64,000 nt of DNA from an uncultured Actinomycetes bacterium (GTDB lineage: Bacteria; Actinomycetota; Thermoleophilia; UBA2241). The number at the start of each line of letters is the position of its first letter. Within the stretch, counting starts at the first letter, position 1. The notes beneath the pieces were generated by a model. The model made no database searches and was not told the origin of the DNA. It was given only the letters and a program-made list of their open reading frames with translations. The stretch covers positions 704,001-768,000 of the forward strand of contig CAVPVX010000007.1 of NCBI GenBank assembly GCA_963709345.1. The letters are read 5' to 3'. The position numbers and the translations under genes were made by a program. Positions 2,363 to 10,285 of this stretch are shown one piece after another.

Positions 2363-2922
2363 TGCAGAGTACCGCGAGCCCGGTCACGACCCGCGATATC
2401 GCCGCCGCCGCCGTCTTCGCCGCGATGATGGCGGCGGGGGCCTACGTGGCCATCCCCGTCGGCTCCGTGCCGTTCACGCTCCAGACGCTCTTCGTGCTGC
2501 TGGCGGGGATGGCGCTCGGACCGCGACTCGGGGCTCTGAGCGTCGTCGCCTACCTGGGCCTCGGCCTGATCGCCCCCGTGTACGCCGGCGGCGCCTCGGG
2601 CCTCGGGGTGTTGCTCGGACCGACCGGCGGCTACCTCTGGGGGTTCATCCCGGCGGCGCTGGTGGCCGGCGCCATCGCCGGCGCCGGCCGGGCCTCGCTC
2701 CCGCGCCTGACGGCCGCCGGCCTCGCCGGCCTCTGCCCCATCTACGCCCTGGGCGCCCTGTGGCTGGCGCTGCAGCTGGGCGTCGGCCCGCGCTCCGCGT
2801 TGCTGCTGGGGGTGGCGCCCTTCGTGTGGGCGGACGTACTGAAGGCCGTGGCGGCGGCGCTCGCGGCGCGCGCGCTGGTCAGCCTGCCGCTGGATCTTCC
2901 CGCGCTGCAGAGAGACCGCTGA
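2362..2922 (+). CDS. bioY: Biotin transporter BioY (ECF S-component)
   Basis: VPFTLQTLFVLLAG and GPTGGYLWGF motifs; hydrophobic; next to birA. Confidence 0.95.
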   Translation: MQSTASPVTTRDIAAAAVFAAMMAAGAYVAIPVGSVPFTLQTLFVLLAGMALGPRLGALSVVAYLGLGLIAPVYAGGASGLGVLLGPTGGYLWGFIPAALVAGAIAGAGRASLPRLTAAGLAGLCPIYALGALWLALQLGVGPRSALLLGVAPFVWADVLKAVAAALAARALVSLPLDLPALQRDR

Positions 2923-4309
2923 CGTCGGCCAGCGCCTGGCCGCGCAGGCGCAGATTGATGCGGCCGCGCTCGTACTCGACCGTGAAGTCGGTGGAACTGC
3001 CGTCGCGGTAAGCGAGATTCTTGTCGCGAAGCACGCGCGCCAGCGCCTCGACGTACTTCTCATCCAGCGTCACGCCGCCCATCATGCGGAGCTCCTTGAG
3101 CGCCTCGAATGAGCTCCGCGCCGCGCGGTACGGGCGGTCTGACGTCATCGCGTGGTAGCTGTCCGCAACCGCGAGGATCTTGCTCAGCTCGGGGATCGCC
3201 TCGCCTTGGATCCCGTGCGGGTAGCCGCTGCCGTCGAGCCGCTCGTGGTGATAGCGGACGATGTCCGCCACCTCCTGGTACGCGGCCAGGTGCGAGAGCA
3301 CCTCCGCGCCCTTCTCCGGGTGCTGGCGGATGAACTGCCACTCCGCGTCGTCGAGCGCCGTCGCCTTGCGCAGGACCGCGTCGGGAACGCCCACTTTGCC
3401 GAGGTCGTGGAGCAGGCCGGCGAGGTGCAGCGCCTGCTCCTGCTCGTGAGGCAACTCGAGCACGGCGGCCATGTCGCGGCAGTACATGGCCACGGCCGCC
3501 GAATGCTGCGCCGTGTACTCGTCCTTGCTGTCGAGCAGCACCACCATGGCGGCGGCCAGGCCGATGTTCATCTCGAGGTACTGGTCGCTCAGCTCCGTCT
3601 GCCGGGCCACGTGCTCGCGCTCGCGCACCAGCAGCTTGAACATGTACTGGCTCGCGAACAGGGGGATGAACAGGAGTGCGACGGCGATGATGCCGGCGGC
3701 GGCGTAGAGCGCCGCGATCCCGAGGCCCAGCAGCAGCAGCACGCCCAGGGACCGGACGAAGGGCGGCATCTCCTCGCGCCAGAACGCGGCGAAGTGCCGC
3801 TTGTACTTGATGCGCATACCCAGGCTCAACAGCGCCAGGTTGGTCGCCTCGAAGACGACGGCCGTCGCCGCCCCCGCCACGATGAGCCCGAACGTCACCT
3901 CGTCGAGCTTCACGCCGAGCGGCCCCAGAAGAGCGTCGAACACCAACGAGGCGAGAAAGACGGAGACCACGAAGTTCGCGGTGTTGTAGACGACCACCAC
4001 TCGCGTGCTCTCGCGCCAGGCGCCCCACAGCCCGACGCCGATGGCGACGGCGATCGCCGGCAGGCGCCCGGTGAACATGATCGCCAGCAGGATCGGCAGA
4101 TTGAACGCCGCCAGGGTGACCCTGTCGGAGACCTCCACGGCCATCTCGTCGGCGATGATCGCCAGCACGAGGAAGACGGCGGCGTCGCGGATGGCGGCCG
4201 GTGAGAGCGGGATCGGACCGGGGAAGAAGGATGCGTACGCGGCCACGAACCCGGCGCACAGCGCCAGGCTCGTGGTGAGCACGCGGTAATTACGCTCGGC
4301 TATGGACAC
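2879..4309 (-). CDS. Membrane-anchored HD-GYP cyclic di-nucleotide phosphodiesterase with an N-terminal multi-TM sensor domain
   Basis: YTAQHS, LHDLGKVG, HHERLDGSGYP and DSYHAMTSDRPYR motifs; about 6-7 TM segments N-terminally; GTG 4309 preceded by GAGG (ORF track start 4351). Confidence 0.92.
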   Translation of the reverse strand: MSIAERNYRVLTTSLALCAGFVAAYASFFPGPIPLSPAAIRDAAVFLVLAIIADEMAVEVSDRVTLAAFNLPILLAIMFTGRLPAIAVAIGVGLWGAWRESTRVVVVYNTANFVVSVFLASLVFDALLGPLGVKLDEVTFGLIVAGAATAVVFEATNLALLSLGMRIKYKRHFAAFWREEMPPFVRSLGVLLLLGLGIAALYAAAGIIAVALLFIPLFASQYMFKLLVREREHVARQTELSDQYLEMNIGLAAAMVVLLDSKDEYTAQHSAAVAMYCRDMAAVLELPHEQEQALHLAGLLHDLGKVGVPDAVLRKATALDDAEWQFIRQHPEKGAEVLSHLAAYQEVADIVRYHHERLDGSGYPHGIQGEAIPELSKILAVADSYHAMTSDRPYRAARSSFEALKELRMMGGVTLDEKYVEALARVLRDKNLAYRDGSSTDFTVEYERGRINLRLRGQALADVSGLSAAREDPAAG

Positions 4310-4338
4310 GGCACCTCGCGGGGTGTGCAGTGCCCCGT

Positions 4339-4366
4339 CTATCGGCACCAAACCGGCAACGCTTGA
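4339..4366 (-). promoter_or_regulatory. sigma28 (FliA/WhiG)-like promoter upstream of the HD-GYP gene
   Basis: Minus strand TCAA-N16-GCCGATAG versus consensus TAAA-N15/16-GCCGATAA. Confidence 0.55.
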
Positions 4367-4370
4367 ACAG

Positions 4371-4451
4371 TCAGTGCATCTTGCTGCCGCCGCCGCTCGT
4401 GACGAGGGCGAACAGCAGGGACGCGAGTGTCTTTTCGATCTTCTTGCTCAT
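4371..4451 (-). CDS. 26-aa peptide MSKKIEKTLASLLFALVTSGGGSKMH (signal-peptide-like N-terminus, GGSKMH tail)
   Basis: ATG with GAGGT RBS about 6 nt upstream; basic N-terminus, hydrophobic core, then a C-terminal motif shared with the neighbouring peptide; below the ORF-track size cutoff. Confidence 0.8.
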   Translation of the reverse strand: MSKKIEKTLASLLFALVTSGGGSKMH

Positions 4452-4482
4452 GAGCGGACCTCAATCGATCGACAACTCGCGG

Positions 4483-4557
4483 TCAGTGCATCTTCCCGCC
4501 GAAACGGATGTGCATCTTGCCACCGGACCTGATGTGCATTTTTCCACCGAAGCGCAT
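4483..4557 (-). CDS. 24-aa tandem-repeat peptide MRFGGKMH-IRSGGKMH-IRFGGKMH
   Basis: Strong AGGAGG RBS 4 nt upstream of ATG; three 24-nt repeats differing mainly at synonymous positions (GGT GGA AAA / GGT GGC AAG / GGC GGG AAG). Confidence 0.8.
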   Translation of the reverse strand: MRFGGKMHIRSGGKMHIRFGGKMH

Positions 4558-4566
4558 GTTCCCTCC

Positions 4567-4593
4567 TAAAGGTTCTCGGCCTCATGCCGATAC
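4567..4593 (+). promoter_or_regulatory. sigma28-like promoter, divergent from the peptide genes
   Basis: TAAA (4567-4570)-N15-GCCGATAC (4586-4593), near-consensus. Confidence 0.6.
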
Positions 4594-4873
4594 ACAATGG
4601 TTGACAATCGTGCAGCGACTCTACGGAGACACGCCGGGTCGTGCCTAGCCAACGCATTTGGACATAGTGGGCAAGTCTCTCCGTCTCAGTTGCCATTTTG
4701 GACAACGCTTCCCGCTGCCGCCTGCATCGCCGCTCGCGCCGTCACCCGCGGACCGGGACATGCGACCCCGCATGTTGTAGGCTTCGTGCGCGGTCGCGCG
4801 GAGATCGGCCGCAGGGGCACGCCAGCGCGCCCGCCTCGCCCGAGTCGCGGCGCGCAGCAAGGGGGAACACACA

Positions 4874-6100
4874 ATAGAGGCGAACGCCGCCGCCACGGAG
4901 ACACCGGACGCATCCCTGGCCCGCAACAGCAGCTTCCTGCTGCTCTGGGTGGGCCAGTTCGTCTCGCAGATAGGCGACCGGCTGGCCGCGCTCGCCTTTC
5001 CGTGGCTCGTCTACACGACCACGGGCTCGGCCGTAGGCACCGGCGCCGTGTTCGCTCTTTACACGCTGCCCTACGTCCTCTTCGGCGCCTTCGCCGGCGT
5101 GCTGGTCGACCGCTACAACAAGCGCAGCCTGATGGTCCTCGCGGACGTGGTCCGCGCGGGCCTGGTCCTGCTGGTGCCGCTCGTCGCCTCCCGCTCGCTG
5201 CCGCTGGTTTACGTGCTCAGCTTCGCGATGGCGACGGCCGGTGTGTTCTTCGACCCCGCCAAGCTCGCCATCGTCCCGGAGATCGTGCCTCGGGCGCGGC
5301 TCATGCGCGCCAACTCTCTGCTCGCCACCGCCGAGAACCTCACCGAGATCCTCGGATGGGCCTTCGCCGGCCTCCTCCTCGCGTCGGTGAGCACGACGAC
5401 CGCTTTCGAGCTTGACGCCGTCACGTTCGTCGTCTCGGCCGTGGCGCTGCTGCTGATGCGCTACCGGACACCCGCACACGCGGCCGTCGAGCGAGGCGTG
5501 CGTGCGCTCTGGAACGAACTGAGCGAGGGGTTCGCCTTTCTTCGCGGTCACCCCGGTCTGCGTGCCAACACGATCATGATCATCGTCTGCGTCTCGGGCC
5601 TCGGGGCCGCCTACCCCCTCACCTTCATGCTCGCCGTCCGCGTGCTGGGCGGCGGGACCAGAACGTTCGGCCTCCTCGAGGCGGCCATCGGAGCGGGATA
5701 CCTCGTCGGCTCACTCGCGCTCGCCGCTCTCGCGCCGCGCGTGCGCAAAGGCTGGACGATGGTCGTCGGACTGGCGTTCATGGGGGTATGCCTCGTAGCC
5801 GTGGCCGCCGCGGAGTCGGTCTGGCAGGCGAGCATCCCCTTCCTGCTCTTCGGGGTAGCCAACGCCGTCGCCCTGATCGCCGTCGACACGTACCTGCAGG
5901 AGGTCGTGCCCGAGGGCATGCTGGGCCGGGTGCTGGGCACGCGCTTCACGCTCACGCAGGGCACCTACGCGCTCTCGGTGCTCGTGGGCGGCGCGCTTGC
6001 GGGCGTCTTCGACGTGCGCGCCCTCTTCGTGGTCGCCGGGGCGATCGTCGCCATGTCGGCCCTCCTGGGGCTGCTCTCCCGCGACGTGCGCGAGACCTGA
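4874..6100 (+). CDS. MFS transporter (DHA3/macrolide-efflux-like)
   Basis: NSSFLLLWVGQFVSQIGD and GVLVDRYNKRSLMV (MFS motif A); start uncertain: possible ATA 4874 after AAGGGGG, first canonical GTG at 4949. Confidence 0.85.
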   Translation: MEANAAATETPDASLARNSSFLLLWVGQFVSQIGDRLAALAFPWLVYTTTGSAVGTGAVFALYTLPYVLFGAFAGVLVDRYNKRSLMVLADVVRAGLVLLVPLVASRSLPLVYVLSFAMATAGVFFDPAKLAIVPEIVPRARLMRANSLLATAENLTEILGWAFAGLLLASVSTTTAFELDAVTFVVSAVALLLMRYRTPAHAAVERGVRALWNELSEGFAFLRGHPGLRANTIMIIVCVSGLGAAYPLTFMLAVRVLGGGTRTFGLLEAAIGAGYLVGSLALAALAPRVRKGWTMVVGLAFMGVCLVAVAAAESVWQASIPFLLFGVANAVALIAVDTYLQEVVPEGMLGRVLGTRFTLTQGTYALSVLVGGALAGVFDVRALFVVAGAIVAMSALLGLLSRDVRET

Positions 6101-9409: not shown

Positions 9410-10274
9410 TCAGGCGCCGCCGGCCGCGGCGGCCGGTCCGTCCAGGTCGGGGACGCGCGCGAGCTCGCCGATGACGGCGGCGCGCCGGTAGAACTCGCTC
9501 AGCCCCTCCCGGTACTCGGGCGTGAAACCGAACTTGAGCTTGTCGAAATAGTCCATGAGGTACGCCTGGCTGAAATCGTAGACCTGGGCGGCCGCGGCGG
9601 CGGTGGCCCCGGGAGCCGCCGCGCACGCGTCGCGCGACGCGAGAAGCGCAGCGCCGACCGCAGCCGCCGCCTCGGGGCGCGCCTCCACGAAGTCCCGGCG
9701 CGCGGCGCACACCGCGTACACCATCGGCAGGCCCGTGACGCTCTTCCACTCGGCGCCGAGGTCGAAGTGGTGCGGGTAGGCCTCCACGCGCAGCAGGTGC
9801 AGCGCCTCGTCGCCGATCAGGAGCAGCGCGTCGAAGTCCTCGAGGACCTCCGACAACGGGCCGCGGCGCGGCGCGAACTCCGGATCGATTCCCCACTCGC
9901 GGCAGAGCACCTTGAGCAGGCAGATGGAGGTCGCGCTCTTCTCCGTCAGCGCGACTCTGCGGATGCGCGCGAGCGGGGTGCGCGCGAACAGCTGGATGGA
10001 GTCCACGGCGCCGAACGAACTGATGGAGATGTGCGGCAGCAGAACCTGCTCCTCGGCGTTGCGGGCGAAGGCGATGGAGGATGACAGCGTGACGTCGATG
10101 GTCCCGTCGACCAGCATGTCGTTGAGCGCCGCGGGATAGCCCTCGACGATCTCGGCGCCGACGCCGCGGGCGGAGAGCTCGCCGCTGAAGTGGTGGTAGA
10201 GCGGAAAACAGTTGACGAACTCGATGCGCCCAACGCGCACGGGAGCGTCGACCGGCGCACCTGCGGCGGCCGGC

Positions 10275-10285
<11 letters not shown>
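9410..10285 (-). CDS. mqnA: Chorismate dehydratase (futalosine pathway)
   Basis: VGRIEFVNCFPL, SATS, LLIGDEAL and DLGAEWKSVTGLPMVYAV. Confidence 0.92.

Follow-up and report, generated by a model that had tools for sequence, protein, structure and literature searches.

Evidence for peptide-level selection on a tandem octapeptide mini-gene upstream of a MASE9-like HD-GYP gene in uncultured Thermoleophilia

Introduction

Small peptides encoded beside a sensor are a known kind of bacterial gene arrangement, as in regulators of the MgrB–PhoQ type and in AgrD/ComC-type precursors, which share an operon with a polytopic receptor. Here we describe a locus of this kind with an unusual and well-supported evolutionary signature, located in a 64,000-nt stretch of DNA (hereafter the window, i.e., positions 704,001 to 768,000 of contig CAVPVX010000007.1, assembly GCA_963709345.1) from an uncultured bacterium of the Thermoleophilia lineage UBA2241. 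The locus comprises two very short open reading frames (ORFs), ORF1 and ORF2, followed on the same strand by a gene for a MASE9-like HD-GYP phosphodiesterase of cyclic di-GMP (c-di-GMP). ORF1 encodes three tandem copies of an octapeptide and is, with high confidence, a translated gene maintained by selection on its peptide.

The likeness to MgrB, AgrD and ComC lies in a same-strand gene of <50 codons placed directly 5′ of a polytopic membrane sensor, and in a peptide with a hydrophobic core and a short conserved tail. However, the output here is an HD-GYP phosphodiesterase and not a histidine kinase, two peptides carry one shared C-terminal tripeptide and one of the two is a tandem repeat, there is no sequence similarity, and no Agr- or Com-type processing or export genes occur at the locus. 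Phr precursors, typically ~40–60 amino acids (aa) long, offer a second comparison: ORF2 has the basic N-terminus, the hydrophobic core and the short hydrophilic C-terminus with a basic residue that the Phr family (TIGR04429) displays, but it is only 26 aa long, and ORF1 is without any leader. The TIGR04429 model scored ORF2 at 13.4 bits (E 0.085) against a cut-off of 25 and did not match ORF1, and no Rap/RRNPP receptor gene with tetratricopeptide repeats lies adjacent, the neighbours encoding the HD-GYP protein, a major facilitator superfamily (MFS) transporter, BioY and BirA.

Two further classes of very short genes bear on the locus. The leaders TnaC, SpeFL, Erm and Mef work by nascent-peptide sensing, with ribosomes stalling at or near the stop codon; like them, ORF1 and ORF2 are very short upstream ORFs, and conservation in ORF1 is concentrated in its last residues. 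Among minimal RiPPs (peptides made on the ribosome and then modified post-translationally), the microcin C precursor MccA has 7 aa and is encoded with an MFS exporter. The biarylitide precursor BytA has 5 aa and an 18-bp gene. ORF1 and its relatives are likewise among the smallest of genes and often start with Met-Arg, they end in His as BytA does, and the locus shares with the mcc operon an MFS pump close by. The differences are that aromatic residues are absent from the BytA cross-link positions (the tail being Lys/Arg-aliphatic-His), that the peptides are 8–33 aa long and that of the window is repeated, that the C-terminal residue is His where MccA has Asn, and that no P450 or MccB-like gene occurs among the scanned neighbours. 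Judged by sequence and gene neighbourhood, the locus belongs neither to the Phr family nor to the minimal RiPPs of the biarylitide or microcin C kind, nor to the classical multi-core precursors.

The architecture of the downstream enzyme is itself already described. The paper that defines MASE9 (bioRxiv 10.1101/2021.11.05.467447) reports MASE9–HD-GYP proteins, with which the protein encoded here shares an integral membrane N-terminal domain and an HD-GYP catalytic domain containing HHERLDGSGYP, and proposes that MASE9 binds a ligand within the membrane.

Results

A tandem octapeptide gene

ORF1 is not annotated and is coded on the minus strand:

4557..4483 including the stop, minus strand: ORF1, a 24-aa mini-gene of three 8-residue units, each ending G-K-M-H, with its stop TGA at 4485..4483
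4567..4562, minus strand: Shine–Dalgarno (SD) sequence AGGAGG of ORF1, four bases 5′ of the ATG

The product, MRFGGKMHIRSGGKMHIRFGGKMH, reads MRFGGKMH-IRSGGKMH-IRFGGKMH and contains no hydrophobic stretch. An earlier note on this DNA had reported three 24-nt units with codon differences, preceded by AGGAGG, and this description was confirmed for the minus strand. Unit 1 is encoded by ATG CGC TTC GGT GGA AAA ATG CAC, unit 2 by ATC AGG TCC GGT GGC AAG ATG CAC and unit 3 by ATC CGT TTC GGC GGG AAG ATG CAC, followed by TGA. Tandem Repeats Finder recovered the array at 4486–4559 with a period of 24, 3.1 copies, 78% matches and 0 indels.

This pattern exceeds chance expectation. Across the 3.11-Mb genome, the 12-mer AAGATGCACTGA occurs only twice, at the 3′ ends of ORF1 and of the adjoining ORF2, and all three occurrences of GGNAARATGCAC lie inside ORF1. 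Genome-wide, 2027 ORFs of 6–41 aa stand behind a strong SD site, and ORF1 is the only one among them to end in [KR][MILV]H. Sequence searches of Pfam, NCBIfam and PDB with ORF1 and ORF2 gave 0 significant matches, Rfam returned only chance-level matches for positions 4200–5000 (evalue mode, E ≥ 0.98), and a promoter and terminator scan of the locus yielded nothing useful. Searches of the full-text literature turned up no account of such peptides; supplements, which may hold unlisted small ORFs, were outside their coverage.

Selection on the ORF1 peptide

We evaluated the coding potential of ORF1 across 47 distinct loci. A G-rich SD sequence lies 3–11 nt 5′ of the ORF1 start codon in all 47, and in 40 of them, spread across genera, the SD-proximal ORF ends in [K/R]-[M/I/L/V]-His-stop (hereafter the K-x-H tail). 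The codons of this tail vary between loci, e.g., AAG ATG CAC, AAG GTT CAC, AGA CTG CAC and CGC ATG CAC, and TGA, TAG and TAA are all used as the ORF1 stop among relatives. A tail that is kept with differing codons and stops matches selection on amino acids and would be hard to account for as a nucleotide motif. The final His is invariant in the 40 intact loci, and it is also the last residue of the nearest K/R-x-H ORF in all 42 loci where such an ORF was found.

Outside the window's clade, which on the flanking-gene tree comprises 21 rows with a support of 99, ORF1 usually consists of one 8–9-aa unit. Examples of these single-unit forms include MRFSAKMH, MIRFCGKMH, MRTSVRMH, MTRSAAKIH, MRRPLKMH, MIVTMTKLH, MVARHIKVH and MRRENVRLH, as well as MRKGAKIH, MRKGWKLH and MRQGAKIH. 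Within the clade, 52 in-frame units from 18 loci were identical at all 8 positions that are first or second in a G-K-M-H codon, and third-position minor alleles in the same codons amounted to 56% for GGN, 15% for AAR and 2% for CAY. The first half of each unit is freely variable. Third-position-only variation, together with a tail kept across genera, therefore points to selection on the peptide and not on a DNA repeat; the earlier note had proposed as much, and both the 52-unit pattern and the 40 of 47 tails support it.

The repeat itself is old within this group. Synonymous codons specific to each unit tend to recur across genomes, with GGA AAA in unit 1, GGC AAG in unit 2 and GGG AAG in unit 3, and therefore the triplication predates the clade and all three copies have been under constraint since. 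Contigs from three RNA-library runs, each from a different study, span ORF2 and ORF1 with 0 indels in ORF1, where they differ from the window at 5 positions, i.e., 3 synonymous third-position changes, one I>V and one R>K; parts of the window without such contig cover were left uninterpreted. Taken together, these observations make it very probable that ORF1 is a translated gene under peptide selection.

Recurrent expansion of the unit

The triplication in the window's clade is one of several in-frame expansions among relatives. Units of 8 aa are present three times in this clade and four times in L014 and L030, and L061 carries three units of 9 aa (MFVEYAKLH ITADYAKLH ITADYAKLH). A 6-aa unit is doubled in L039, L051, L062, L053 and L056, which occupy at least two separate places on the tree, and a 5-aa unit is doubled in L046. 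In L035 and L038, the duplication instead involves two complete mini-genes with an SD sequence each, and L105 likewise has two. All in-frame expansions retain the K-x-H ending of every unit. From these sequences, in-frame expansions and whole mini-gene duplications arose separately, and such repeated multiplication argues that extra copies of the motif are useful.

ORF2 and the shared tail

The second small gene follows directly:

4451..4371, minus strand: ORF2, encoding MSKKIEKTLASLLFALVTSGGGSKMH (26 aa), in which a basic N-terminus is followed by a hydrophobic core, a Gly/Ser linker and a KMH-stop (TGA) end
4463..4459, minus strand: weak SD-like TGAGG 5′ of ORF2, with CTGAGGT conserved in the alignment of relatives

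ORF2 begins 31 nt past the ORF1 stop, and its C-terminus reads GGGSKMH. A fusion or readthrough product of ORF1 and ORF2 was rejected, as the two are in different frames and a stop lies 3 codons 5′ of the ORF2 ATG. In an alignment of 26 distinct ORF2 sequences (alignment A1), M1, E6, G21 and H26 are invariant and S11, A15, G20 and K24 are near-invariant, with more distant members carrying G in place of E6. Variable columns at codon positions 1/2/3 number 8/5/21 (30 sequences), nucleotide identity is 88% for ORF2 vs 51% for the 31-nt spacer that precedes it, and RNAalifold placed 0 pairs in ORF2 (24 sequences), i.e., no conserved RNA structure. By these comparisons, ORF2 is conserved along its whole length and at the protein level only. 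The 25–26 aa of ORF2 comprise a basic N-terminus, a core of 10–15 hydrophobic residues that is signal-peptide-like or membrane-seeking, a Gly/Ser stretch and then S-K-M-H, an arrangement like that of short secretion precursors or small membrane peptides. When ORF2 paralogues were searched for in the window's own genome, only the locus itself was recovered.

Throughout the window's clade, ORF1 and ORF2 have the KMH end in common. Elsewhere the match extends to other residues, with both peptides ending KIH in L018 and L042 and both ending RLH in L048; gene conversion is an unlikely source of this likeness because codons and stops differ between the ORF1 and ORF2 tails. On the tree, the middle residue changed 8 times in ORF1 and 6 times in ORF2, and the co-variation of the two tails is suggestive only. 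The shared C-terminal motif would fit the earlier idea that ORF1 is a mimic or antagonist of the neighbouring peptide.

Distribution and linkage of the module

The unit, in the order ORF1, ORF2, MASE9-like HD-GYP gene, was found in one Thermoleophilia family only, and the record titles of the relatives designate uncultured Thermoleophilia. The family is described as uncultured soil and sediment bacteria; sequencing-run shares were all ≤0.33, and no habitat conclusion was drawn from them. The ORF2 profile built from A1 matches 60 of 79 other genomes of the window's family, and among 401 genomes of the class outside the family it matched only eight times, marginally (E 1e-3 to 1e-2) and within long ORFs. 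Overall, ORF2 is present in 65 of 89 family genomes. An orthologue-level match to the HD-GYP membrane domain was detected in 64 of these 65, the exception having ORF2 at a contig end, and 18 of the 24 ORF2-negative family genomes are without such a match. The order MFS, ORF1, ORF2, HD-GYP, bioY is kept in 45 of 52 related loci, and the remaining 7 are without upstream flank. A complete genome of the genus provides a separate observation: its locus (L105; G006:C4:205560-206160, minus strand) has the HD-GYP orthologue and no ORF2.

MASE9 genes themselves are much more widespread, occurring in 94 of 301 genomes of the phylum (a tally that includes four genomes flagged unpublished). In other families, an ORF ending K-x-H-stop was found ≤350 nt upstream of 0 of 29 MASE9 genes, with an antisense control of 0 of 29. 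The two-peptide module is therefore a family-specific addition, and it sets this locus apart from MASE9–HD-GYP genes in general.

Downstream enzyme and neighbouring genes

The two larger genes on either side of the mini-genes are as follows:

2879..4309, minus strand: MASE9-like HD-GYP c-di-GMP phosphodiesterase, a 476–490-aa membrane protein (HD_5 4.6e-43)
4949..6100, plus strand: divergent MFS transporter (Pfam MFS_3; DHA3/EntS/Mef-like), start codon uncertain

The gaps on the shared strand are 31 nt between ORF1 and ORF2 and 61 nt between ORF2 and the HD-GYP gene. The MASE9 score of the window's HD-GYP protein, 21.7 bits, is under the Pfam cut-off of 24.3, and MASE9 is matched by 23 of 26 HD-GYP orthologues at E ≤ 0.01 (best 3.6e-8). 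The longest HD-GYP ORF begins at TTG 4351. The stretch 4351..4310 is probably non-coding because in-frame stops fall within it in L021 and L030, and because two RNA-library contigs have a TGA at 4318; the start is probably GTG 4309 behind GAGG (4317..4314) and not TTG 4351. The window's genome encodes a second MASE9-type protein (G000:C7:263943-264623), a 618-aa open frame with a 32% identical membrane domain, which scores above the Pfam cut-off; the genome-wide ORF2 search gave no match at that locus.

Downstream of the HD-GYP gene lies bioY, in convergent orientation, with the 3′ ends of the two genes overlapping by 44 bases (2879–2922), and birA, which includes a helix-turn-helix domain, is located just upstream of bioY. 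The genes scanned within ~5 kb encode GerE/LuxR, BirA, BioY, HD-GYP, two MFS transporters and MqnC, the latter being the nearby radical S-adenosylmethionine (radical-SAM) gene and belonging to menaquinone synthesis. No NCBIfam model matched an ORF at 9410–10285 at E ≤ 1e-5. In the stretch 4653–4712 (minus strand), which separates ORF1 from the MFS gene, two conserved TGTCCA copies stand ~40 nt apart, the first within an imperfect inverted repeat, TTGTCCA-N3-TGGCAAC, that is seen across the genus alignment and may be a candidate operator for divergent promoters.

Possible roles of the two peptides

We tentatively favour a model in which ORF1 would be the first cistron of a lineage-specific operon formed by ORF1, ORF2 and the MASE9-like HD-GYP phosphodiesterase gene. 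The working part of ORF1 would be the tripeptide [Lys/Arg]-[Met/Ile/Leu/Val]-His common to the ORF2 C-terminus, and the ancestral ORF1 would have been one peptide of 8–9 residues, e.g., MRKGAKIH or MRFSAKMH, that was triplicated in frame in the window's clade. Both peptides may then have a single target in trans, most likely the membrane sensor enzyme encoded with them, with ORF2 presenting its K-x-H tail at the membrane and ORF1 supplying several soluble tail copies per peptide, as an agonist, a competitor or a dose booster. Together, they would tune c-di-GMP breakdown. This model sets out from the translation signals, peptide-level selection, shared motif, linkage and recurrent expansion established above, from which we infer both the action in trans and the HD-GYP protein as target; we regard it as plausible, at a strength somewhat short of probable. 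A more specific version, which we consider rather unlikely on the sequences at hand, is that the K-hydrophobic-His peptides would be self-encoded MASE9 ligands, ORF2 membrane-delivered and ORF1 soluble, at a dose tuned by repeat number, that gate the c-di-GMP phosphodiesterase. Complex prediction for the HD-GYP protein (alignment A2) with ORF2 (A1) reached 0.25 vs a mark of 0.32, ORF2 being shorter than any calibration protein.

Several points weigh against action in trans on the enzyme. The RNA-library contigs are not proof of transcription because DNA can occur in such libraries. Genes that adjoin are expected to occur together and to be lost together through single deletions, and related genomes do not count as independent samples. 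Many lineages have tails with an unlike middle residue (KLH/KIH, KVH/KLH, KIH/KVH), i.e., the co-variation is weak, and L105 has two mini-ORFs in the place of ORF1, MRKSWKLR and MRQSWKLR, with a terminal Arg for His. Were ORF2 inserted with the N-terminus on the inner side, its tail would point outward and, ORF1 being without an export signal, the tails of the two peptides might never share a site. Finally, short upstream ORFs and complementary leader and intergenic elements are also compatible with regulation in cis.

Regulation in cis is the alternative that survives best, and we view it as possible but doubtful. It would make ORF1 and ORF2 leader peptides whose nascent K-hydrophobic-His slows the ribosome at or near their stops, so that pausing sets the ribosome supply or the open mRNA for ORF2 and the HD-GYP gene and extra units amount to extra pauses. 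Consistent with this, the two short ORFs lie directly 5′ of the enzyme gene on one strand, with one RNA-library contig, itself not proof of a single transcript, covering 4283–4539, the conservation of ORF1 is limited to its last three residues in a peptide of only 8–9 aa in most lineages, and ORF2 starts 5–13 nt past the ORF1 stop without an SD sequence of its own in some genera. The K-L-R end in L105 also resembles the +x+ motif of macrolide leaders. What mainly keeps this explanation alive is the complementarity of two elements that flank the small ORFs:

4592..4585, minus strand: TATCGGCA, a conserved element of the 5′ leader, with GTCAACC, also conserved, before it at 4605..4599
4347..4340, minus strand: TGCCGATA, a conserved element in the intergenic gap that separates ORF2 from the HD-GYP start; it is the reverse complement of TATCGGCA

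Of 46 loci, 42 carry both elements (cores RTCGGC and GYCGAT), the 6-mer having a genome frequency of 7.6e-4 per base. The two pair in the minimum free energy (MFE) and centroid folds of the window RNA, and the two core substitutions observed (L016, L018) preserve a G-U pair. Such pairing would enclose both small ORFs in a ~240-nt loop just before the ribosome-binding site of the enzyme gene, and the 8-mers may form a long-range RNA helix or serve as two protein-binding sites. The duplex-energy z of the 5′ vs the 3′ element, mostly +1 to −3 (34 of 47 loci), was not used as evidence. A local hairpin in the leader was dropped as a candidate, its register shifting between clades.

Other features of the locus speak against leader peptides. 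The whole-leader fold is no better than shuffles (z = −1.09), and RNAalifold on the 5′ leader (40 sequences) yielded only 3 invariant pairs, with no covarying local hairpin and no covariation for the pairing. Internal ORF1 units, which have no stop after them, are conserved as strongly as the last one, and ORF2 is conserved over all 26 residues, beyond its end. Unlike in the arrest leaders, internal tandem copies are under selection and any of the three stop codons is used, and no sequestered start site or terminator was found at a conserved spacing, the distance from stop to next start (5–60 nt) and from stop to RNA element (about 24–55 nt) being widely variable. Correlated K>R and M>I changes in both peptides would also be unexpected with the ribosome as the sole partner.

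A released product appears improbable. ORF1 would then be a leaderless multi-core precursor and ORF2 the leader-plus-core form of the same short peptide, which would be excised and leave the cell, perhaps through the divergent MFS pump, to serve as a signal or other bioactive peptide. The earlier note had raised a multi-core precursor, and the part of this proposal that stands is the repeat: several near-identical units abut head to tail, three in the window and 2–4 (of 5, 6, 8 or 9 aa) in relatives, and their recurrent expansion fits. The resemblance of ORF2 to a short secretion precursor, its sub-threshold Phr match at the N-terminus and the adjoining DHA3-type MFS transporter, weakly like a ryptide export pump (E 4.4e-9, far below the cut-off), point in the same direction. 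The part that does not stand is processing, as no protease or modifying gene lies nearby, i.e., no protease, radical-SAM maturase, P450, ATP-grasp or C39-ABC gene within ~5 kb. Furthermore, there is no conserved cleavage motif or spacer (the residue after His being I, L, S, T, Q or H), the resemblance to Phr falls short of significance, and the gene order may have been conserved by inheritance without any functional link.

A metal-binding mini-peptide or a sensing attenuator based on His and Met, both suggested previously, is very unlikely. The window's ORF1 does have 3 His and 4 Met in 24 residues, and the terminal His is the residue kept in every intact locus, but the middle residue is M, I, L or V depending on the lineage, which weakens any proposal that depends on Met, and most single-unit forms are left with one His. 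Neither a metal transporter nor a His/Met biosynthesis gene lies downstream of ORF1, and the conservation of Lys/Arg would be left unexplained.

The frame of ORF1 is not kept everywhere. Frame loss in orthologues, which the earlier note had put forward as a sign of a DNA-binding-site array, was seen in only 7 of the 47 loci: in L005, L007, L010, L011, L013, L019 and L072 (identical to the named loci L067, L066, L059, L033, L040, L057 and L072), units are not in frame with the start codon or with one another. Two compensating indels shift the middle unit in L008 and L012. A single assembly series, with a shared isolate prefix and contig naming, is the source of all seven frame-broken loci, the naming presumably being typical of long-read assemblies, which tend to carry indel errors; of the 13 loci without the shared title prefix, none is frame-broken. 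Frame changes in the flanking HD-GYP or MFS gene affect 14 of 31 loci of this series vs 0 of 21 in other records. The HD-GYP gene has a frameshift or stop in 7 of 7 ORF1-broken vs 5 of 40 ORF1-intact loci (Fisher 1.3e-5, for related genomes that are not independent), and the MFS gene is disrupted in 2 of 7 vs 3 of 40. Overall, HD-GYP frameshifts or internal stops occur in 12 of the 45 loci holding the gene, and the neighbouring MFS gene is disrupted in 5 of 47; disrupted loci with record titles all belong to the one series, reflecting either consensus errors or frequent decay of the enzyme gene. The frame-broken loci thus represent either poor consensus or loss of the ORF1 frame only alongside a decaying enzyme gene, and neither of these favours a non-coding role in the intact majority.

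A DNA or RNA binding-site array that is open in one frame by chance is highly unlikely: the seven loci do retain the unit nucleotides (GGCAAGATGCACATC), shifted in frame against the SD-proximal ATG or against one another, but these share their isolate prefix and a disrupted HD-GYP gene, the conserved half of the unit varies with a strict period of three bases, other genera keep the motif as amino acids with different nucleotides, and nothing in Rfam corresponds to it.

Significance

Genes of 8–26 codons escape annotation, and at this locus comparative data alone place two of them under clear peptide-level selection. The enzyme that both precede is a sensor, and no ligand is known for its membrane domain, MASE9. 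For bacteria, it is unusual that a mini-peptide has been multiplied in frame repeatedly and independently, and these expansions provide a natural dose series. If the action is in cis, K-x-His-stop would constitute a new motif for arrest or coupling. If instead the peptides control the enzyme, small-peptide signalling would be tied to c-di-GMP turnover in a poorly known, uncultured actinobacterial lineage and, should they be MASE9 ligands, the locus would encode a peptide-to-c-di-GMP module without a described counterpart and provide the first ligand assigned to a MASE9 domain.

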